Below are positions 3,922 to 26,291 of a stretch of DNA of 62,298 nucleotides, one piece after another; within the stretch, counting starts at the first letter, position 1; every line of letters begins with the position of its first letter. Position numbers and translations under genes: made by a program. Origin of the DNA: a bacterium. GTDB taxonomy: Bacteria > Patescibacteriota > Minisyncoccia > Moranbacterales > UBA2206. The notes below the pieces were generated by a model. That model made no database searches. It saw only the letters and a list, made by a program, of their open reading frames with translations, and was not told the DNA's origin. The stretch lies in assembly GCA_029567195.1 (NCBI GenBank), contig JAKQLJ010000038.1:1-62298 (forward strand), in the 5' to 3' direction.

Positions 3922-5079
3922 TTATTTAAGATCAATTTCCTGAAGATCTATTTTGCATCCGGTAGTGCTGGAAATCAGATCAATGACTCTTTGGACTCTT
4001 CCTTTTAGAAAAGAATCTTTCGTTTCCAGAGTCGCTTTCCAAAACAACGGAAGGCTTTGAAGAGCACAATCATAATCTTGATGAAAAGAAGATGCCCACC
4101 AAAATTGGCAACTGTTGAGTGCTTTGTCCAATGCCAAACGGCCTTCGTAAGACATATGGTTTCTGCATTCCAAAACCATTCGGGTCAGTTGCCAAAGAAG
4201 ACGATGAACGGGGTTTTGCGGATGATTCCAGAGAGGAAAGGGAATATTATTGTCCATATCTTCTTTGCTGGTTGACCAGCTTCCCGGAGGAATTTCAAAT
4301 GGCTTTTTGGGGAAATAATCACATATTTCGGAAATCTTTTCCAGCGCCAAGCCTTTTTTTTGGCCTCCATTTCCTATTTCATCCAAGAATCTTTCCAAAT
4401 CTCCGATATATTCTTTGTGATGATGGCCGAAAGTCTCGGCGTCCATTCCAATGACCAGATAGCCATCTTTTCCGTTGATCCATCGTCCGAATTTGGAGTT
4501 GATGTCTTCCAGTATGCTTCCCCGGATCTTTTTAAATGCAATAGAGCTGCTCCAAAGATGACTGCGCAATATGACCGGCAGGCCGTCAGTTTCCGGAATG
4601 AACTCAAATGGGGCAAAACCGTGTTTTTCGCAAAATGGAATGTCTTCCGAAATAACCCATTTGTAATTGTGATTCTTTAGGATAGTAGTTATCCGGGGGC
4701 TGAATGCCATTTCTGGCGGGAAAAATCCTCTGCCAACTTCAAGACCCTCTTTTCTAAGTCCCTCCTTGTTTAGACGAATTTGACGGTCTATTTCATGTTC
4801 GTCCAGAAGCGGTAAAATCGGATGATAAGCTCCGCTTCCGGTCAGTTCCATCTTTTCTTTCCTGATTGCTTCGGCAAACAGTCCGAGCAGTTTTGCATGG
4901 CCGCAATGCTTAAGCAATTCGACCAATGAATAATTGATATTTACCGTAAAACAAGCCTTTTCATGTCGGACAATTAAATCAAGAAGCGGATAATAGCACT
5001 CTTCCAAAATTCTTTCCAGTATCTCCTTGGATTGCCAGGGAGGCTGGTAGAAATGCAAAAGAAAACCGAGATGTTTCAT
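3922..5079 (-). CDS. Glycoside hydrolase family 57 protein
   Basis: HFYQP, YHPILPLL, FFPPEMAF, MDAETFGHH, SCQFWW motifs. Confidence 0.85.
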   Translation of the reverse strand: MKHLGFLLHFYQPPWQSKEILERILEECYYPLLDLIVRHEKACFTVNINYSLVELLKHCGHAKLLGLFAEAIRKEKMELTGSGAYHPILPLLDEHEIDRQIRLNKEGLRKEGLEVGRGFFPPEMAFSPRITTILKNHNYKWVISEDIPFCEKHGFAPFEFIPETDGLPVILRSHLWSSSIAFKKIRGSILEDINSKFGRWINGKDGYLVIGMDAETFGHHHKEYIGDLERFLDEIGNGGQKKGLALEKISEICDYFPKKPFEIPPGSWSTSKEDMDNNIPFPLWNHPQNPVHRLLWQLTRMVLECRNHMSYEGRLALDKALNSCQFWWASSFHQDYDCALQSLPLFWKATLETKDSFLKGRVQRVIDLISSTTGCKIDLQEIDLK

Positions 5080-5235
5080 AAATGCCCTCCTTTGGCAATC
5101 ATATTTTGTTTGATGAATGGTTTTTTCTCGCCTTCCAACCGTTATTTACAATGAAAAGAACTCTGATAAAACAGTAAACTTTTTTTATAATCGCGTCAAA
5201 TTAATTTATTCCAGATTCTCATAAAGGTTGGAAAT

Positions 5236-5272
5236 AAAAAAGGCGGCCCAGCAGTGATCTGCCAGCCGCCTT
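5236..5272 (-). terminator. Intrinsic terminator after the small ORF at 5288-5509
   Basis: AAGGCGGC/GCCGCCTT stem followed by a T run on the minus strand. Confidence 0.6.
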
Positions 5273-5287
5273 AAGGGAGGGCAATGT

Positions 5288-5509
5288 TCAGTTTCGAGTG
5301 GGGGGGTCGTTCAAATTGGCAAAGCAAAGAGATTTTCTTTCGCCTTTTTCATCGCACACTGTTACTGGTGATTTACATATCCCGTTAATAATGTCAGTGC
5401 CGCCACAGCGGGGACATGTTGCCGTGTTAACAACGCTTTTTTTTCTGAGGGTTTTTTTCGCCCCATCTTGTAAATTTCTCAGTTTATCCTCATCTTTTGG
5501 AAAAAACAT
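5288..5509 (-). CDS. Small Cys-rich protein, 73 aa (CPRCGG, Zn-ribbon-like)
   Basis: GAGGAGG SD 5' of ATG; five Cys including a CxxC. Confidence 0.65.
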   Translation of the reverse strand: MFFPKDEDKLRNLQDGAKKTLRKKSVVNTATCPRCGGTDIINGICKSPVTVCDEKGERKSLCFANLNDPPTRN

Positions 5510-5565
5510 AGCATTTACCTCCTCTGTATTTTTGTATTAAAAGTACTGATTGAAGAAAAGAAATC

Positions 5566-5586
5566 AAAAAACCGCCGCCGGCGGTT
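5566..5586 (-). terminator. Attenuator-type terminator of leader unit C
   Basis: AACCGCC-GGC-GGCGGTT followed by a T run. Confidence 0.7.
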
Positions 5587-5613
5587 GTCTTTTGGTTCGA
5601 TTTTCTTTTCTTT

Positions 5614-5691
5614 CTACGAACGCTTAAAAACAACCGCTTGGCGAATGGCGAGCAATAGTAGGCCTAGCAAATTGTTTTGTCGTTTGTTCAT
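5614..5691 (-). CDS. Putative leader peptide C, 25 aa (MNKRQNNLLGLLLLAIRQAVVFKRS)
   Basis: Manual translation; ATG lies 6 nt after a -10 box; its 3' end is complementary to the terminator arm. Confidence 0.55.
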   Translation of the reverse strand: MNKRQNNLLGLLLLAIRQAVVFKRS

Positions 5692-5697
5692 AATAAT

Positions 5698-5726
5698 AAT
5701 TTAATACGGCTATTATTTTTTGTCAA
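5698..5726 (-). promoter_or_regulatory. Sigma70-type promoter of unit C
   Basis: TTGACA-N17-TAAATT. Confidence 0.6.
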
Positions 5727-5826
5727 ATAAAAAAACTCCATACTAAACAGCGTAGTGAATAAATCCATTTCTTATTTCAACCAAGCTATGATTTGCTGCT
5801 TTCCAATAATGATCCAACAAAAAAAC

Positions 5827-5972
5827 CCGTCATCCTGAGCGAAGTGAAATTGGGGTAGCGATTGAACGTAGTCGAAGGATCTGCCAATTAATATCAAAAC
5901 CAGCAATTCTATTTAGTAGATTCTTCGGCTTCATCTCGTCCTAAACGGACTCGATTCCGCTCAGAATGACGG
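5827..5972. repeat. Palindromic REP-like element, GTCATCC...GAATGAC family
   Basis: Terminal IR CCGTCATCCTGAGCGAA / TTCCGCTCAGAATGACGG and inner IR CGAAGGATCT / AGATTCTTCG. Confidence 0.8.
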
Positions 5973-6005
5973 TAAAAAGAAACACGCTATTTGTTAAAGA
6001 GCCAT

Positions 6006-6037
6006 AAAAAAAGCAAGCGGACAAGGCGCTTGCTTTT
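6006..6037. terminator. Bidirectional intrinsic terminator
   Basis: AAAAGCAAGCG / CGCTTGCTTTT. Confidence 0.7.
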
Positions 6038-6046
6038 GAAAAGGTT

Positions 6047-6199
6047 TTAAGATGTCCGGAAGCTTTCTACGGCATCATTGTATAATTTTTGGCATACCGG
6101 ACATAAATTTTTGCCAGGAATGACCTCTCTTTTTTTGCTGCAACAGTTGTTGCAGCATCTTTCTTTGGGATGAGGATCTTTCGGGTGTTCTTTTTCCAT
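6047..6199 (-). CDS. Small Cys-rich protein, 50 aa (MEKEHPKDPHPKERCCNNCCSKKREVIPGKNLCPVCQKLYNDAVESFRTS)
   Basis: AAGAGGTG SD; CxxC ... CPVC pattern; not in the ORF track. Confidence 0.65.
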   Translation of the reverse strand: MEKEHPKDPHPKERCCNNCCSKKREVIPGKNLCPVCQKLYNDAVESFRTS

Positions 6200-6211
6200 T
6201 GTTTTCACCTC

Positions 6212-6475
6212 TTAATTCTTTCCGTTTCCGTTTATTCGGAGAAAGAGCTTTACTTCAGGTGAAGCTTGATTTCCAATGTCGCGGCACGATTTTTGGTGAT
6301 CGCACCTTCCGCCATGGAGACAAACATCATAAGGATACTTTTTTTGATCGCGAGCCTCCTCAAGGATTTCCGGTCCCCGAGGACAATGCCTGAGGGGATA
6401 AAAACCCGGTTCAGTTTCTATCCTGCTTCTCAAGGCTCTTATTTCCTGCTTTCTGTCAGACGGATAAAACGCCAT
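6212..6475 (-). CDS. Small Cys/His-containing protein, 87 aa
   Basis: AAGGAGG SD; HCPRG and CLHGGRCDHQKSC. Confidence 0.6.
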   Translation of the reverse strand: MAFYPSDRKQEIRALRSRIETEPGFYPLRHCPRGPEILEEARDQKKYPYDVCLHGGRCDHQKSCRDIGNQASPEVKLFLRINGNGKN

Positions 6476-6534
6476 TTTTCCCTCCTTTTATTTTCTATTT
6501 TTCTAAATTGCTTTTATTTAGTTTAAAAAAGAAC

Positions 6535-6605
6535 AAAAAAACCGACTGCCGTCGGGTTGATTTTAGATATTTTTTAAAAAGTAAAATCAACTCGACGATG
6601 GTCGG
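6535..6605 (-). promoter_or_regulatory. Antiterminator/terminator switch of leader unit B
   Basis: CCGACCATCGTCGAGTTGATTTT can pair with AAAATCAACCCGACGGCAGTCGG (20 of 23 positions). The latter contains the terminator CCGAC-GGCA-GTCGG plus a T run. Confidence 0.7.
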
Positions 6606-6649
6606 ATAATAATGGTAATAATAATTTGGCTTAACAGGTTCTTTTTCAT
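6587..6649 (-). CDS. Putative leader peptide B, 20 aa (MKKNLLSQIIITIIIRPSSS)
   Basis: ATG 7 nt after TATAAT; six Ile codons within seven positions. Confidence 0.6.
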   Translation of the reverse strand: MKKNLLSQIIITIIIRPSSS

Positions 6650-6656
6650 TTAATTT

Positions 6657-6685
6657 ATTATAATATATGGCTGAAAAATTTTCAA
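6657..6685 (-). promoter_or_regulatory. Sigma70-type promoter of unit B
   Basis: TTGAAA-N17-TATAAT. Confidence 0.65.
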
Positions 6686-6756
6686 ATAATAGGGTGCCAA
6701 GGAAGAGAATTGCTTCATCATGTTTTGATGAGCTCTCTTCCTCGGCGGGAACCGCT

Positions 6757-6987
6757 TTAGAAAAACGGCTGTTTTGAATCGGGGTCAGGAGGTGTAAGGT
6801 TGCAAACCCCCGGGATATGCTTGTCTTCCTCAGTAGCAATTACTTCCTTAATATGGCTACTTTCTATTTGTGCAGAAGGTACTCCACATTTTCGACGACT
6901 TTCCTTTCTCCGGGCTTTTCTGAGACATTCGGCAATATTATCGCAGCTTGCTACATCAAATTCTTCTCCATCGCGCATACAATTCAT
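6757..6987 (-). CDS. Small Cys-containing protein, 76 aa
   Basis: AAGGAG SD upstream; five Cys. Confidence 0.5.
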   Translation of the reverse strand: MNCMRDGEEFDVASCDNIAECLRKARRKESRRKCGVPSAQIESSHIKEVIATEEDKHIPGVCNLTPPDPDSKQPFF

Positions 6988-7216
6988 GTTCTTCTTCTCC
7001 TTTTAGGTTAAGTTTTTTGGCACATTTATGATTTCCTGATTGAATCTCTTTTTTCGCTCTTTGTGGAGAGCGCCGCCAGAATTCAGTCGGATGTGACCTT
7101 ATTTATTCTGACAGAAGTTCAATGCAGGAAACCATCCATGAGCCGGAAAAAGAAAAATATTTTTCACTCTTTCCGGCTCGCGGATTTTTTGCGCCTTTTT
7201 AAAGAACTTATCAAAT

Positions 7217-7240
7217 AAAAATCCCGGTCTTTTACCGGGG
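7217..7240 (-). terminator. Terminator of leader unit A
   Basis: CCCGGT-AAAAG-ACCGGG followed by ATTTTT. Confidence 0.55.
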
Positions 7241-7265
7241 TTCTCTGTTTTTCTTATCCTTTATC

Positions 7266-7355
7266 TTATTGAGATTCCCCAGCAAAAAATTCTCGCCCTA
7301 CAAAGACGGAAGAAATGAGAATAATCTTCAATGTGTTTTTCGCCGAGTTCCTCAT
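7266..7355 (-). CDS. Putative leader peptide A, 29 aa (MRNSAKNTLKIILISSVFVGREFFAGESQ)
   Basis: Manual translation; lies between a consensus promoter and a terminator. Confidence 0.45.
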   Translation of the reverse strand: MRNSAKNTLKIILISSVFVGREFFAGESQ

Positions 7356-7377
7356 TTAAATATTGTTATCTTGTAAA

Positions 7378-7406
7378 AGTATAGGGGATTTTATGTTTTT
7401 TGTCAA
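7378..7406 (-). promoter_or_regulatory. Sigma70-type promoter of unit A
   Basis: TTGACA-N17-TATACT. Confidence 0.7.
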
Positions 7407-7479
7407 CTTTTTTAGGTTCTTTTGGGTCAATTTAAGCCAAAAAAGCCATTTTTAGCCGCATTTTAGCCCCCAGAAATGA

Positions 7480-7507
7480 TTGACAACAAGAGCAAAAGGT
7501 GTATAAT
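7480..7507 (+). promoter_or_regulatory. Sigma70-type promoter upstream of the RRM gene
   Basis: TTGACA-N16-TATAAT. Confidence 0.6.
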
Positions 7508-7684
7508 GGATGTATTGTAAGATTCTCCGTAGTTTCCTGTTTCTTGCCATTTTCCCCACAAGGGAAAAGCGAAAGAAACGAGCCTTATATGAAATAGTGT
7601 AAGGGTAGTCTAAAGGCTGAACGCTTTTTAGAAGTAAAGAGCTAAGTGAGAAGGTCACCTTGCAATTTAAGTTCATATAATTTA

Positions 7685-7743
7685 ATCCGGTTAGATGCCT
7701 CGCGGAGCGAGGACTTCGCTTAGAGCGGAGAATTTAACGGGAT
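7685..7743. repeat. Degenerate palindromic element, CCCGTT...AACGGG family
   Basis: ATCCGGTTAGAT ... ATTTAACGGGAT arms enclosing two small hairpins. Confidence 0.5.
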
Positions 7744-7750
7744 AAAATAA

Positions 7751-8071
7751 ATGGCACAGAAACTTTATGTAGGTGGATTAGCATATTCCACTACGGAAGA
7801 ATCTTTGGGAAATCTTTTCGCTCAAGCCGGAACAGTTCAATCTGCCAGTATCATTACTGACAAAATGTCCGGACGATCTCGAGGCTTTGGCTTCGTAGAA
7901 ATGAGCACAGAAGAGGAAGCTCAGGCTGCTGTTGAGATGTTTAATGGAAAAGAGTTCGAAGGAAGAACTTTGACTGTTAACGAAGCTCGTCCTCAGGGAG
8001 ACCGACCAAAAAGAACTGGTGGTTTTAGAGGAAATGACAGAGGCGGTTTTGGAAGACGAGACCGATTCTAA
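7751..8071 (+). CDS. RRM-domain RNA-binding protein (Rbp-like)
   Basis: RNP2 LYVGGL, RNP1 RGFGFVEM and a Gly/Arg-rich tail. Confidence 0.95.
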   Translation: MAQKLYVGGLAYSTTEESLGNLFAQAGTVQSASIITDKMSGRSRGFGFVEMSTEEEAQAAVEMFNGKEFEGRTLTVNEARPQGDRPKRTGGFRGNDRGGFGRRDRF

Positions 8072-8074
8072 TAG

Positions 8075-8110
8075 AAAAACACTCTCGGGTTAACCGGGAG
8101 TGTTTTTTTG
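8075..8110 (+). terminator. Intrinsic terminator
   Basis: AAAACACTCTCGG / CCGGGAGTGTTTTT. Confidence 0.75.
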
Positions 8111-8189
8111 TTTTATATGATATTGCTTAATATCTTCAAAAAATGCTATTATTTAGTAGTTATAAACTCATATTAAGTTTCTTCCTGAT

Positions 8190-8287
8190 GTCATTCCCAA
8201 CTTGATTGGGAATCCAGAAAACAAGCTGGATCATAAAGACTAGATTCCCGCCTGCCTGCCGGTAGGCATGGCTTGCGCGAGAATGAC
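8190..8287. repeat. Palindromic element, GTCATTCCC...GAATGAC family, with a nested CCTGCCTGCCGGTAGGC mini-element
   Basis: ATTCCC-N9-GGGAATCC ... GATTCCCG ... GAGAATGAC. Confidence 0.75.
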
Positions 8288-8385
8288 AACAGACAAAAGT
8301 TATTCCAATAAAATAGCTTATCATAAAGACAGGATGGAATTAACTTAAAATGACTTAAATATTTTTTTAAACTCAGATACAATTT

Positions 8386-8745
8386 ATGAAAAAAATTATT
8401 TTATCTTTATTGATTTTAGCGGCGGCTATTTTTTTGTTTTTTTCTTTTAAATCTTCTTCTAGCGTCGGATCTTTAGAAAATGCCAAATTCATTTTATTTT
8501 ATGGCACCGGCTGTCCGCATTGTGAAATAGTGGAAGAATTTATCAAAAAAAATAATATTCATGAGAAATTGGACTTTCCGGAAGTGGAAGTTTTTTTCAA
8601 TAAGGATAATGCAGCTGTTTTTGCTCAAAAGGCCAAGGAATGCGGTCTGGATGAGAAAAATTTGGGCGTGCCGCTCTTTTGGGCGGAAGGCAAATGTTAT
8701 AGCGGAGACAAAGACATAATCAGTTATTTAAGTGACAAGCAATAA
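8386..8745 (+). CDS. Exported thioredoxin/glutaredoxin-like protein
   Basis: Signal anchor, GCPHC, and GVP cis-Pro motif. Confidence 0.75.
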   Translation: MKKIILSLLILAAAIFLFFSFKSSSSVGSLENAKFILFYGTGCPHCEIVEEFIKKNNIHEKLDFPEVEVFFNKDNAAVFAQKAKECGLDEKNLGVPLFWAEGKCYSGDKDIISYLSDKQ

Positions 8746-8812
8746 GTGACAAGTAACATGTAACAAGTGACATGTGACAAGTAACAAGTAATAAGAAATA
8801 AGTGACAAGTAG
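8738..8812. repeat. Degenerate heptamer tandem array (TGACAAG/TAACAAG)
   Basis: About ten imperfect 7-nt units at the gene junction. Confidence 0.8.
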
Positions 8813-8817
8813 TGTAT

Positions 8818-9327
8818 ATGAAAAAAATTATTAAATACATAGCGGCTTTCTTTCTGGCATTTTTACCGCTGGGAAAAGCTCAGGCGGTTTGTCCAGTTTG
8901 CACGGTGGCGGTAGGAGCAGGCGTAGGGCTGACAAGATATCTAGGAATTGAAGACACTATCGCCGGAGTATGGATTGGCGGAATGGTGGTTTCTTTGGCG
9001 TTATGGACAAAAAATTGGATGGCGGGAAAAAATAAAAAATTTCGCTATCAAAGCCTTATTTTAATTATCATCTATTTTTTACTTGTAATCGTCCCTCTTT
9101 ACTACACCGGCATTATGGGGCATCCCTTTAACCGTATTTGCGGAATGGATAAAATTCTTTTCGGATCGTTTTTTGGAATTTTTGGCTTTATTATAGGTAA
9201 TGCCGTTAATCTTTATATAAAAGAAAAAAATGGCGGTCGGGCCTATTTTCCTTTTCAGAAAGTCGTGATGGCCATAGCTCCGCTTGTAATTTTAAGCGTT
9301 ATTTTCTATATTATTAGTAAATGCTGA
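8818..9327 (+). CDS. Conserved membrane protein with CPVC motif
   Basis: AVCPVCTVAVGAG followed by several TM segments. Confidence 0.7.
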   Translation: MKKIIKYIAAFFLAFLPLGKAQAVCPVCTVAVGAGVGLTRYLGIEDTIAGVWIGGMVVSLALWTKNWMAGKNKKFRYQSLILIIIYFLLVIVPLYYTGIMGHPFNRICGMDKILFGSFFGIFGFIIGNAVNLYIKEKNGGRAYFPFQKVVMAIAPLVILSVIFYIISKC

Positions 9328-9351: not shown

Positions 9352-9957
9352 ATGGAAACAAATAAGGAGTTGATAAAAAATGTCAATGATTTGATTGAAA
9401 AGGTGGATAATATGAAAAAGCAGGACAAGATGGATCTAAGCTCTGATCAGGATCTTTCCATTGCTATTATGAATTTGGTGAGCATTGAAGAGCATTTTTT
9501 CTTTACCGGAGCTAAACTCAATAAGCCTGAATATTTTGATTTGCTTCAAGAAGTAAGAAAAATGAGAGGCGACCTTTTGCGAAAAATTATCAAGGATTAT
9601 GAAGGCGAAGTCTGGTGTATTTCCAAACACTTATTGGCGGCCTCCATGAGGCTGATGGAGGTGGGAACCAAACAGCAGGGAATGGGGAAGAAAGAAGAGG
9701 CTCGGGAATTGTTTCAGAAAGCCTATGATCTTTATTCTTTGTTTTGGGCGGTCAATATGAAAATCATTAAGACTGATGATATCAAAAAAATCGATGAAGA
9801 CGCGGTAAATGTTCATGATAAAAAAGAAGAAGCCGTGAAGATGGCTTCTGATAACAAACCCGCTCAAGTCAAAGATGAAAACAAGCCTGTGAAATCCAGT
9901 TTCTTAGGGAAAATGGGAGAATTAGTGAGAAAAGCGATTGATTGTTGCATTGAATAA
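9352..9957 (+). CDS. Conserved hypothetical protein (C-terminal DCCIE)
   Basis: 201 aa ORF, WCISKHLL motif, operonic with the two upstream genes. Confidence 0.7.
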   Translation: METNKELIKNVNDLIEKVDNMKKQDKMDLSSDQDLSIAIMNLVSIEEHFFFTGAKLNKPEYFDLLQEVRKMRGDLLRKIIKDYEGEVWCISKHLLAASMRLMEVGTKQQGMGKKEEARELFQKAYDLYSLFWAVNMKIIKTDDIKKIDEDAVNVHDKKEEAVKMASDNKPAQVKDENKPVKSSFLGKMGELVRKAIDCCIE

Positions 9958-10024
9958 AATATGAAACAAGAGAAAGGGTCGAACTCTTGTTGATTGTAAT
10001 AAAAATTAAAATAAAAAAATTATC

Positions 10025-10333
10025 ATGTCTAAAAAAGCAATTATTCTGACGGTTCTATCTGTCCTTCTTTTGGTATTAGCCATATTTGGCCTTCAAAAAG
10101 CCAAAATAAACAGCCTTTCTACCAACACGTCCATTCCGTCGGTGGTTAAGATGCCAAAAGAAGCTTTGGCCAAGCCGACTGGAAACGTGGGTGATACGGT
10201 GGATGCCATAATTAATGAATCAACAGAAGAAAAATCATTGCTCTTGGCGGAAGACGAAGTCGCTAAAAACGCTGTCAGCGACAAGCAAGAGGCAGATGAT
10301 TTGTCAAAATCATATGATGAAAATGAATTTTAA
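10025..10333 (+). CDS. Exported hypothetical protein
   Basis: N-terminal hydrophobic segment and acidic tail. Confidence 0.6.
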   Translation: MSKKAIILTVLSVLLLVLAIFGLQKAKINSLSTNTSIPSVVKMPKEALAKPTGNVGDTVDAIINESTEEKSLLLAEDEVAKNAVSDKQEADDLSKSYDENEF

Positions 10334-25812: not shown

Positions 25813-25898
25813 TGCCGCGTAAAGAAATTTGCTAAAGCAAATTTCCACGCGGCTACCACGTGATGAAATTTTTTCAGAAAAAATTTCATTTTACGTGG
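25813..25898. repeat. Double-hairpin element, GCCGCGT family, copy 1
   Basis: TGCCGCGT..CACGCGGC and CCACGT..TGAAATTTT/AAAATTTCA..ACGTGG. Confidence 0.75.
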
Positions 25899-26291
25899 TG
25901 GAGATGGCGAGAATTGAACTCGCGTCCAAAATTATTCTTCCAAAATAATCTACAAGTTTAGCTTATCTGTTTGTTCAATTAAAGATAATAAATAAGCAAA
26001 ATCACTTTAATTTATTTCTGATATAATTTTACTAATATTACTCAGAAAAAACAATATTAGCTATTCTGATGTTTGACACCAAGATCTGCCTATCAGAAGT
26101 CGGCAGTTTGATGGCTAAAGCTATGTTTAAGCTAAAGCAGGAGCGAAAGACGGTGCAAAAGCTTGCGCAATTGCTGTCTTTGCCTTTGTTATGAAGTTTG
26201 CACTTATAACTTTGATAAAAATTTTAACGGGTCATTATCATTCCCGACTTGCCTATTTTAAAAGTACAACCTGTCGAAACCAAACATCCCC
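25896..26291 (-). ncRNA. ssrA: tmRNA
   Basis: 5' GGGGATGTTTGGTTTCGACAGG; 3' T-arm GTTCAATTC and CATCTCCACCA; G3.U Ala identity pair; tag frame 26127-26201; adjacent to smpB. Confidence 0.95.

Follow-up and report, generated by a model that had tools for sequence, protein, structure and literature searches.

Three tandem leader-peptide units, putative amino-acid-sensing transcription attenuators, precede small cysteine-rich genes in a Patescibacteria bacterium

The window analyzed here is a 62,298-nt stretch (contig JAKQLJ010000038.1, assembly GCA_029567195.1) from a member of the ultra-small Patescibacteria (CPR) with a 0.83 Mb assembly. On the minus strand of positions 5236-7406 lie three units, termed here A, B, and C, each comprising a near-consensus sigma-70 promoter, a 20-29 codon ORF without a Shine-Dalgarno (SD) sequence, an intrinsic terminator, and then one or two SD-led small Cys-rich ORFs. 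A preliminary description of the region had reported this layout, together with complementarity between the 3′ end of each short ORF and the 5′ arm of its terminator, and we confirmed each of these features in the sequence.

The unit A promoter (TTGACA-17-TATACT, nt. 7378-7406) matches the consensus at 11 of 12 positions and is followed by a 29-codon leader ORF (nt. 7266-7355, MRNSAKNTLKIILISSVFVGREFFAGESQ), the ATG of which lies 22 nt after the -10 hexamer. Homologues of this leader were found in six related genomes, designated G018, G024, G086, G055, G012, and G017. Segment 1 of the unit (CUCGGCGAAAAA, nt. 7336-7347, the N-S-A-K-N codons) pairs with segment 2 (UUUUUUGCUGGGGAAUCUC, nt. 7271-7289) in the fold of the free RNA, and this pairing is kept through one-sided and wobble changes in relatives. 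Segment 2, which lies inside the 3′ end of the ORF here and just after the stop codon in relatives, can alternatively pair with segment 3. Segments 3 and 4 (nt. 7213-7245) comprise the 5′ arm GAGAACCCCGGU, which also serves as the antiterminator partner, and the hairpin CCCGGU-AAAAG-ACCGGG (terminator at nt. 7239-7223) followed by a U run. The cargo of unit A is an SD-led 76-aa ORF with 5 Cys (nt. 6757-6987), beginning about 220 nt downstream, for which we found no family hit and no homologue in any of the retrieved loci.

In unit B, the promoter (TTGAAA-17-TATAAT, nt. 6657-6685) is followed 7 nt after the -10 hexamer by the ATG of a 20-codon leader ORF (nt. 6587-6649, MKKNLLSQIIITIIIRPSSS), placing the A of the ATG at or next to +1, such that the mRNA is leaderless or nearly so. 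Six Ile codons within seven lie at nt. 6625-6605. Segments 1 (CCGAC) and 2 (CGUCGAG) are located inside the last codons of the ORF (nt. 6591-6605), and a central hairpin (UUGAUUUUA...UAAAAUCAA, nt. 6557-6590), with the UGA stop codon (nt. 6589-6587) in its 5′ arm, brings segments 2 and 3 together. Segment 3 (CCCGACG) and the terminator CCGAC-GGCA-GUCGG, followed by U7, occupy nt. 6535-6556 (terminator at nt. 6555-6542). Two cargo genes follow: an SD-led 87-aa ORF with 4 Cys (nt. 6212-6475), in which C31, C52, C58, H60, and C64 are conserved in the G018 homologue (tblastn, E = 7e-19), and a 50-53 aa ORF (6 Cys in the 53-aa form; CCNNCC...CPVC, nt. 6047-6208). A 51-aa ORF with a similar Cys pattern sits behind the Ile leader in G017, although the similarity is not detectable by BLAST. 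A terminator-like hairpin with a U run (AGCAAGCG...CGCUUGCU, nt. 6005-6034), read directly from the sequence and not listed by our terminator scan, ends the unit B operon.

Unit C begins with the promoter TTGACA-17-TAAATT (nt. 5698-5726), and the ATG of its 25-codon leader ORF (nt. 5614-5691, MNKRQNNLLGLLLLAIRQAVVFKRS) lies 6 nt after the -10 hexamer, again consistent with a leaderless or nearly leaderless mRNA. The Leu run (nt. 5670-5650) has 6 Leu in 7 codons and contains 3 rare CUA codons. Segment 1 (AAAACAAU, nt. 5671-5678, the conserved N-N codons) can pair with segment 2, a pairing inferred from sequence comparison, while segment 2 (GCGGUUGUUUUU, nt. 5626-5637, the A-V-V-F codons) forms the antiterminator arm. 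Segment 3 (AAAAGACAACCGCC) and the terminator AACCGCC-GGC-GGCGGUU, followed by a U run, lie at nt. 5566-5593 (terminator at nt. 5586-5570). The cargo is an SD-led 73-aa ORF with 5 Cys (MFFPKD...CPRCG..., nt. 5288-5509), with a homologue in G018 (tblastn, E = 4e-7); a phmmer search against 1.8 billion representatives found only the query itself. A second terminator-like hairpin (GGCGGC...GCCGCC with a U run, nt. 5235-5270), likewise read directly from the sequence and not listed by the scan, ends this operon. In both units B and C, the SD-led genes follow within 55-60 nt.

The cargo proteins have no detectable family (no Pfam or NCBIfam hit), yielded structure models of low confidence, and turn over faster than their leaders. 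While the preliminary description termed them metal-binding, this remains only a pattern-level guess, based on CPxCG and CxxC knuckles and the Cys/His positions conserved in the one detectable homologue.

The leaders themselves are conserved beyond this genome. All three recur with intact reading frames in several other genera of the same Patescibacteria family, and the uORFs, together with their amino-acid runs, terminators, and competing pairings, are kept in 5-7 genomes of other genera; uORFs not conserved in close relatives were an outcome the preliminary description had named as refuting its proposal. For unit B, a DNA search of relatives found the leader, but not its flanks, conserved at 74-78% identity in three other genera, and a covariance model recovered it strongly in 6 genomes and weakly in a further one, G045. 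In all seven, the ORF is kept in frame with an Ile run (MKKLFNFIIGIIIRQASS, MNMRSNNIIMDIIIRRTSG, MKEISTQKSNNIIIDIIIRRMSG, MNFIFLTNSIIMIINRPASS, ..IFIIRIIMIRRASS, and MNNFLFVIIISIIIGLKDRCFA). The relatives in question are G017, G018, G024, G086, G055, and G045, and the frame is also kept in G140 and G164, two genomes of another family. Interestingly, all four segments are replaced together in G045 (CGGCC / GGACCG / CGGUCC / GACCGA, against CCGAC / GUCGAG / CCCGAC / GUCGG), with the logic kept. We did note that among the six close unit B sequences the antiterminator is 94% paired but varies too little for covariation to exceed shuffles, and the covariation argument rests on a few divergent sequences read by eye. 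Homologues of unit C in 7 more genomes (G018, G024, G086, G055, G017, G012, and G075) all have the form ..NN-LLLLL(L)-..-VVV.., and segments 2, 3, and 4 change together (GUGGUUGU / ACAACCAC / GUGGCUGU against GCGGUUGU / ACAACCGC / GGCGGUU).

The Ile and Leu runs are kept through synonymous codon changes. The Leu runs use all six Leu codons, with CUA making up 9 of 41 run codons against 5% genomic usage, indicating that selection is on the amino acid and that rare codons are favoured, as appears to be the case in E. coli leuL. Given the 39% GC content of the genome, runs of I, L, F, N, and K arise easily, and a genome-wide scan gave about 25 short ORFs with 5 of 7 identical residues before a hairpin. 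Conserved residues outside the runs (NN, NQN, NSAKN, VVV) coincide with segments 1 and 2 and are therefore explained by RNA pairing.

To examine the switch in silico, we ran a partition-function scan with a ribosome mask from A-15 to A+13 placed at every codon. Terminator probability is about 0 while the A site is in or before the run and about 1 immediately after it in 7/7 B units, 7/7 C units, an Asn unit, and the Phe units, as well as in 12 further units. Unit C of this genome is thermodynamically the weakest, with a terminator probability of only 0.31 with the ribosome at the stop codon, and class A profiles are inconsistent between relatives. When the upstream part was dinucleotide-shuffled and the scan repeated, shuffles with at least as long a run of antitermination codons as the real sequence numbered 0/60 for B, 0/60 for an additional Phe unit, 2/60 for A, and 7/60 for C. 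The decisive evidence is the conservation in other genera.

The same platform carries other codons in related genomes, where it precedes cognate genes. These include R-R-Q-R before argS (TIGR00456, 295 bits), L-P-Q-P-I-N-P before a 115-aa ORF followed by proS, S-P-R-R-R-S-P before a proB-like glutamate 5-kinase followed by proS, and I-I-S-I-V-I-I on the class A platform before citramalate synthase (TIGR00977, 662 bits). The units also form a conserved bank, with the order A, Ile, Leu in G018 and G055, and A, Ile, Leu, (Asn), Phe directly after rpoD in G024 and G086, with up to five units in relatives. In the present genome, a fourth unit (Phe/aromatic) follows rpoD on another contig. The preliminary description had considered the arrangement unexpected in a probable CPR bacterium, since no amino-acid biosynthesis genes follow the leaders. 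Given the cognate genes in relatives, the arrangement is less paradoxical than stated, and the platform is most likely a general amino-acid-sensing device of this order, with small Cys-rich proteins as a recurrent but unexplained cargo.

Taken together, we consider the region most likely (probability of roughly 0.8) to hold three independent ribosome-mediated transcription attenuators in tandem, as the preliminary description proposed, although, without transcript or ribosome evidence, the translation of the leaders, its coupling to transcription, and the response to starvation are inferred. In this model, a strong promoter starts an mRNA whose first codons are the leader ORF, which overlaps segments 1 and 2 of a four-segment switch; pairing 1:2 together with 3:4 forms the intrinsic terminator, while pairing 2:3 prevents it. 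A ribosome that reads through to the stop codon covers or releases segment 2 too late, such that 3:4 forms and transcription ends before the cargo gene. If no ribosome loads, 1:2 and 3:4 form and transcription again terminates, although the equilibrium fold of free unit B RNA is one long hairpin (1:4 plus 2:3), and this step therefore depends on co-transcriptional order. If the ribosome stalls on the clustered codons just 3′ of segment 1 because the cognate charged tRNA is scarce, it masks segment 1, 2:3 forms, and RNA polymerase reads into the small Cys-rich genes. Unit B would read Ile-tRNA (IIITIII) and unit C Leu-tRNA (LLGLLLL), whereas unit A, with a mixed Ile/Leu/Val stretch and no single-residue run, probably reports branched-chain amino acids, its specificity being the least certain.

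An alternative, which we regard as unlikely, is that the switches sense general translation capacity, with ribosomes slowed or stalled by energy shortage, antibiotics, or ribosome damage, and that the hydrophobic runs are incidental or merely slow to translate. This is most plausible for unit A, given that it and its homologues carry mixed hydrophobic codons. Further, every codon from 1 to about 14 gives antitermination in the folding scan, such that any early stall would induce, and the cargo has no known link to amino-acid supply. However, the runs are kept at the amino-acid level, different units in one bank carry different runs (Ile, Leu, Asn, Phe), and run identity matches the regulated gene in relatives. 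Less likely still, the short transcripts may be untranslated cis-regulatory or small RNAs whose hairpins are set by a protein or small ligand (as with TRAP, PyrR, or riboswitches), the ORFs being by-products. The lack of an SD, the nearly palindromic unit B element (scoring about 50 bits on the opposite strand too), and the peptide conservation outside the runs, much of which is explained by pairing, are in keeping with this. In contrast, the frame, start, and stop are kept despite indels (18-24 codons in the class B units), the ATG sits at the expected +1, 6 nt after the -10 hexamer, in most homologues, the unpaired run region is conserved as amino acids and not as nucleotides, and no Rfam family reaches its threshold. 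Finally, functional hydrophobic micropeptides, such as type I toxins or small membrane proteins, are very doubtful despite the hydrophobic cores (IIITIII, LLGLLLL, IILISSVFV) and the strong promoter and own terminator of each ORF, given that the hydrophobic stretches (7-9 residues) are too short to span a membrane, sister units carry polar runs (NNNQNNN, RRR, PQPINP), no antisense promoter or partner RNA was seen opposite the leaders in our promoter scan, and the terminators are embedded in a conserved competing structure with SD-led genes following.

Patescibacteria cannot make most amino acids and live on other cells, and almost nothing is known about how they regulate genes. The comparative evidence presented here suggests that one order of them uses ribosome-mediated attenuation in a modular, leaderless form in which the codon run can be swapped (Ile, Leu, Phe/aromatic, Asn, Pro, Arg); we found no description of this for CPR bacteria in the literature searched. 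The units suggest which amino acids limit growth in these organisms, the design implies tight coupling of transcription and translation, and the orphan Cys-rich mini-proteins are singled out as probably induced by starvation. Being short and self-contained, the elements could also serve as natural reporters of amino-acid status in co-cultures of epibiont and host. More speculatively, and with low confidence, the bank may be a dedicated amino-acid-starvation regulon of these host-dependent bacteria, each attenuator reporting one aminoacyl-tRNA pool (Ile, Leu, branched-chain; Phe elsewhere in this genome; Asn in a relative) and switching on fast-evolving, probably zinc-binding mini-proteins. These would be depleted in the very amino acid being sensed (Ile is 4.2% in Ile-controlled cargo against 8.9% in the proteome) and could still be made during the shortage. 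They would act on the cell's own transcription or translation machinery, the bank sitting next to rpoD or an RRM RNA-binding protein gene, or alternatively on the host cell, and would work alongside the RelA/SpoT enzyme that the genome also has.

Among known systems, the drug-responsive leader-peptide attenuators of Firmicutes (ermC, cat, and bmrCD via bmrB) use a ribosome stalled on a short leader ORF to remodel downstream RNA and induce expression, as is inferred for the present units, but stalling there is caused by an antibiotic and the nascent-peptide sequence and not by runs of one amino acid, and no resistance gene follows here. T-box riboswitches sense aminoacyl-tRNA status and control read-through of a terminator before tRNA synthetase and amino-acid genes, as the present platform probably does; however, they bind uncharged tRNA directly and need no translation, whereas the present leaders are 110-170 nt long and contain an ORF inferred to be translated. 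No match to the T-box model (RF00230) was found at E <= 5 in nt. 4500-8500, nor at gathering thresholds in the window or at the thrS leader of this genome. The leader-peptide attenuators predicted in Actinobacteria (Seliverstov et al. 2005, PMC1262725) appear to rest on the same kind of comparative analysis, extended beyond Proteobacteria and Firmicutes, but concern a different phylum and unrelated sequences, and differ from the tandem bank, leaderless uORFs, and non-metabolic cargo seen here.

The closest resemblance is to the classical attenuators of enterobacterial amino-acid operons (trpL, leuL, ilvL/ivbL, pheL, hisL, thrL, and pheM before pheST), which appear to share the short ORF with clustered codons for the sensed amino acid, the four RNA segments with mutually exclusive 1:2/3:4 and 2:3 pairings, and the intrinsic terminator before the regulated genes. 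The rare CUA codons in the Leu run recall leuL, the mixed Ile/Val/Leu leader of unit A is reminiscent of ilvL, and the placement before tRNA synthetase genes in relatives parallels the control of pheST by pheM. There is, however, no sequence or covariance-model membership: only unit A gave weak hits, far below the gathering thresholds (Trp_leader, RF00513, 21.8 against 41 bits; Phe_leader, RF01859, 21.5 against 55 bits), units B and C gave none, and no leader-family hit reached gathering thresholds over the whole window. The present units further differ in that the leader mRNAs of B and C are leaderless or nearly so, instead of SD-led, the host is a Patescibacteria bacterium, units of different specificity are arrayed in one bank, and the cargo in this window consists of orphan small Cys-rich proteins, not biosynthetic operons.

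Read on the minus strand, positions 7406-5236 contain three units built the same way. In unit A, a promoter (TTGACA-17-TATACT, nt. 7406-7378) is followed by a 29-codon ORF (nt. 7355-7266, MRNSAKNTLKIILISSVFVGREFFAGESQ), which starts 22 nt after the -10 hexamer and lacks an SD, a terminator (CCCGGU-AAAAG-ACCGGG plus a U run, nt. 7239-7213) and, about 220 nt further on, an SD-led 76-aa ORF with 5 Cys (nt. 6987-6757). Within this spacer, we noted a second strong hairpin (nt. 7130-7185, minus strand, GAGCCGGAAA...UUUCCGGCUC) with no U run after it, which could be a processing or stability element, or a remnant. In unit B, the promoter (TTGAAA-17-TATAAT, nt. 6685-6657) precedes a 20-codon ORF starting 7 nt after the -10 hexamer (nt. 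6649-6587, MKKNLLSQIIITIIIRPSSS), a terminator (CCGAC-GGCA-GUCGG-U7, nt. 6555-6535), SD-led ORFs of 87 aa (nt. 6475-6212) and about 50 aa (nt. 6208-6047), and then a terminator-like hairpin. In unit C, the promoter (TTGACA-17-TAAATT, nt. 5726-5698) precedes a 25-codon ORF starting 6 nt after the -10 hexamer (nt. 5691-5614, MNKRQNNLLGLLLLAIRQAVVFKRS), a terminator (AACCGCC-GGC-GGCGGUU plus a U run, nt. 5586-5566), an SD-led 73-aa ORF (nt. 5509-5288) and a terminator-like hairpin. With 6 nt between the -10 hexamer and the ATG, the A of the ATG falls at the usual +1; unit C is therefore leaderless and unit B nearly so.

The assembly comprises 0.83 Mb in 54 contigs at 39% GC. The best named relative of the neighbouring GH57 gene is Patescibacteria group bacterium UBA4787, and the CPR assignment holds; however, no leader bank is found upstream of this gene in UBA4787. 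Between the terminator of the unit B operon and the unit C promoter lies a 268-bp repeat (nt. 5736-6003, minus strand), with a 93% identical copy on another contig of this genome, C27 (nt. 8690-8959), just upstream of a promoter and the thrS gene, and partial copies on contigs C37 and C40. The repeat folds into a long hairpin closed by a 17-bp stem (CCGUCAUUCUGAGCGGA...UUCGCUCAGGAUGACGG) followed by a U run (z-score -3.1), and in both full copies a TTGAC promoter starts about 10 nt after the repeat. It could be a MITE-like mobile element or a structured small RNA, while the possibility that the thrS leader after the second copy is a T-box was not supported. Elsewhere in the window, a tmRNA gene is present (nt. 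25896-26291, minus strand; Rfam 158.6 bits; ARAGORN tag peptide ANFITKAKTAIAQAFAPSFAPALA).

The leaders are conserved, and their cargo much less so. A DNA search of 40 related genomes with the whole region found the unit B leader at 74-78% identity in three other genera, and little else of the region. Using a covariance model of the unit B core, we identified it strongly in six genomes and weakly in a seventh (G045; compared genomes are numbered with the prefix G) out of 71 genomes of the family. In every case, an ORF of 18-24 codons ends at the same place in the RNA structure and carries an Ile run, as seen in G017 (MKKLFNFIIGIIIRQASS), G024 (MNMRSNNIIMDIIIRRTSG), G086 (MKEISTQKSNNIIIDIIIRRMSG), G055 (MNFIFLTNSIIMIINRPASS), G018 (..QNIFIIRIIMIRRASS) and G045 (MNNFLFVIIISIIIGLKDRCFA). 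A homologue of unit C lies a few hundred bases downstream in the same loci, in G018 (MKIFQNNLLLLLIAQHPVVVLKIS), G024 (MRNRLDNLLLLLLTQHPVVVFRVS), G086 (MRNQINNLLLLLLTQHPVVVFRIS), G055 (MNQIINNLLLLLLSPHAVVVSFRS) and G017 (MRNLKNNLLLSIRSNGGCF), and a homologue of unit A lies upstream in those loci, in G018 (MKNSAKKIYNKFILSFIAIGR), G024 and G086 (MKNSVKNYITIKVLSVVFGR) and G055 (MKTAKQTFKLVFGMLITVIGR).

Further units occur in the same row in G024 and G086, one being Phe/aromatic (MKISANQNLYSFFYFFFWFIRKAGFGFVEIKA), and G024 also has an Asn-rich unit (MRNVRNNNQNNNIPSRAGVCVLIGG). In genome-wide scans of the genome under study (G000), only one more convincing unit was found besides A, B and C, on contig C17 (nt. 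9934-10133, plus strand). This fourth attenuator comprises a promoter (TTGACA-17-TAAATT), a leader with a Phe/Tyr/Trp run (MANSRNQNLYSFYYFFFWFFNQAGFGFEKIKA) and the segments AACCAAAACC / GGUUUUGGUU / AACCAAAG..GGCC / GGCCGG followed by a U run, and lies directly after dnaG-rpoD and before three small ORFs of 65, 78 and 63 aa. The bank lies divergently next to an RRM RNA-binding protein gene in G000, G018 and G055, and directly after rpoD in G024 and G086. In the window, a perfect TTGACA-16-TATAAT promoter (nt. 7480-7507, plus strand) points away from unit A towards the RRM gene (nt. 7751-8071), leaving a 5' untranslated region of about 240 nt. We also noted that the words AGTTCTTTAAAAA or AGTTCTTTT recur between terminator and SD in several genomes (about nt. 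7208-7215 in the window, nt. 10134 on C17, and several relatives); however, the motif AGTTCTTT occurs 117 times in the genome against about 84 expected, and this mild over-representation may be chance.

Several features support the view that the short ORFs are read as codons. Across eight genomes, the Leu runs use all six Leu codons (UUG 22, CUA 9, CUU 5, CUC 3, CUG 1, UUA 1), and the Ile runs use AUU, AUC and AUA; the run is therefore conserved as amino acids while the nucleotides drift. CUA, the rarest Leu codon in this genome (5%), supplies 3 of the 6 run codons in unit C and 22% of run codons overall (p about 2e-4, cautioned by the use of this genome's codon usage for all genomes and by ignoring relatedness). 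ORF lengths differ between genomes while the frame, start and stop are kept, and most homologues have the ATG exactly 6 nt after the -10 hexamer. The residues conserved outside the runs coincide with RNA segments that pair, namely N-N in class C (AAACAAY), N-Q-N in the Phe class (AACCAAAACC, which pairs perfectly with GGUUUUGGUU), N-S-A-K-N in class A (CUCGGCGAAAAA, which pairs with UUUUUYGCUGGG) and V-V-V in class C (GGUGGUUGU, which pairs with ACAACCAC).

Each class has four segments. In unit B, segment 1 (CCGAC) and segment 2 (CGUCGAG) both lie in the last codons and are followed by a stable central hairpin (UUGAUUUUA / UAAAAUCAA), segment 3 (CCCGACG) and segment 4 (GUCGG, followed by U7), such that either 1:2 and 3:4 form (terminator) or 2:3 extends the central hairpin (antiterminator). 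In G045, all four segments are different but still mutually complementary in the same pattern (CGGCC / GGACCG / CGGUCC / GACCGA), while in G018 segments 3 and 4 changed together (CUCGGC / GCCGGG), with 2:3 kept through G-U pairs. Similarly, segments 2, 3 and 4 of class C change together between G018 and G000. Given that a MAFFT alignment including the divergent G045 misaligned the stems, these coordinated changes were read by eye, and a formal count on the six close unit B sequences showed 94% pairing but too little variation to beat shuffles; the covariation evidence is therefore qualitative.

To model ribosome position, we forbade pairing from 15 nt upstream to 13 nt downstream of the A-site codon and computed the probability of the terminator hairpin for every codon. 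In all 7 B units, all 7 C units, the Asn unit and 3 Phe units, the probability is about 0 while the A site is in or before the run and jumps to about 1 within one or two codons after it, although in the Phe units the jump falls inside the aromatic stretch. The same holds for 12 further units. Unit C of this genome gives a terminator probability of only 0.31 with the ribosome at the stop codon, class A profiles vary between relatives, and free unit B RNA at equilibrium prefers one long hairpin (1:4 plus 2:3), so that the untranslated, terminated state depends on folding order. After dinucleotide shuffling of the upstream part, at least as long a run of antitermination codons appeared in 0/60 (B), 0/60 (Phe), 2/60 (A) and 7/60 (C) trials.

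The relatives also provide a test of specificity. Covariance models of class C and class A, searched over 301 genomes of the order, hit 29 and 70 genomes, respectively, many of them weakly, and inspection revealed the same platform with other codons, followed by cognate genes. In G080, the leader MKKMQTISRRQRTNPKVQPGVVC precedes arginine-tRNA ligase (TIGR00456, 295 bits); in G060, G061 and G066, MKKILTNSLPQPINPKSSLRLFVSV precedes a 115-aa ORF and then proline-tRNA ligase; and in G065, MKKIIKNSSPRRRSPKLSLRLFVSV precedes a glutamate 5-kinase-like (proB-like) gene and then proS. In G079, G077, G084 and G076, leaders of the class A type (MQNIARKFFEIISIVIIRRQFFARVYA and similar, with Ile/Val codons) precede citramalate synthase (TIGR00977, 662 bits), the first enzyme of the citramalate route to isoleucine. 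In G140 and G164, which belong to another family, the Ile leaders MNLVKFITGIIIAIIIPQRRAGFHFN and MNIFKLITGGILIIISPRRAGFYFE precede a CxC...CPKCG mini-protein, which in G140 is Zn-ribbon-like and followed by an M20 peptidase. These matches argue for amino-acid-specific sensing, and also suggest that unit A, with its mixed Ile/Leu/Val stretch, reports branched-chain amino acids, though this remains the least certain assignment.

The four cargo proteins of the window displayed no Pfam or NCBIfam family and no paralogy among themselves or elsewhere in the genome. A word-indexed homology search of the 87-aa and 73-aa proteins returned only self hits, and phmmer of the 73-aa protein against 1.8 billion representatives returned only the query itself and one spurious repetitive protein. 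AlphaFold2 models of the 87-aa and 73-aa proteins, built with their few homologues, were of low confidence (mean pLDDT of 51 and 52.5, respectively), too poor for fold search. Among all fetched loci, only G018 has BLAST-detectable homologues of the 87-aa and 73-aa proteins, and none has a homologue of the 76-aa or 53-aa proteins. The 87-aa protein is 44% identical to its G018 homologue, with C31, C52, C58, H60 and C64 kept, and the 73-aa family shares M-[FY]-F-P-x-D at the N-terminus and a CPxCG knuckle; zinc binding is plausible but untested. Interestingly, many cargo mini-proteins (starting at nt. 6475 and 5509 in the window, and in G018, G024, G012, G140 and G164) begin with an aromatic-Pro motif (MAFYPSD, MAVFPSA, MFFPKD, MFFPED, MYFPED, MVPFYNP, MAPFYHP), even though the proteins are otherwise unrelated, and a translation-related signal is conceivable.

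Small Cys-rich ORFs follow such leaders in several other genera as well (G006, G005, G191, G140, G164 and G149). Pooled over genomes, cargo behind Ile leaders has 4.2% Ile against 8.9% in the proteome, Leu cargo 6.5% against 8.8%, and Phe cargo 2.9% against 5.3%. This is suggestive only. The proteins are small, hydrophilic and partly homologous to one another. The genome also has a RelA/SpoT gene (a 500-aa ORF on contig C10), and the bank is therefore not a substitute for the stringent response.

Taken together, the three-unit array noted in the preliminary description is confirmed, and its reading as leader-peptide attenuators controlling small Cys-rich genes is supported. The mechanism is very probably ribosome-mediated attenuation (a probability of about 0.8 for units B and C, and lower for the specificity of unit A), with translation of the leaders and the response to starvation being inferred. 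These elements very probably work like the enterobacterial trp, leu, ilv and phe leaders, and the features of this functional class that can be tested in silico are present, although unit A has only a mixed Ile/Leu/Val stretch and the cargo genes of the window have no known link to amino-acid supply. They are not members of any curated Rfam leader family, with searches at permissive and gathering thresholds giving only sub-threshold Trp/Phe leader hits to unit A and noise, nor are they T-boxes. While comparative analysis has been applied in Actinobacteria (PMC1262725), no description of such regulators in Patescibacteria or CPR was found in the full-text literature searched. What is particular to this locus is the tandem bank of differently specified units, the leaderless leader ORFs (unit C, and nearly so unit B) and the fast-turning-over Cys-rich cargo.
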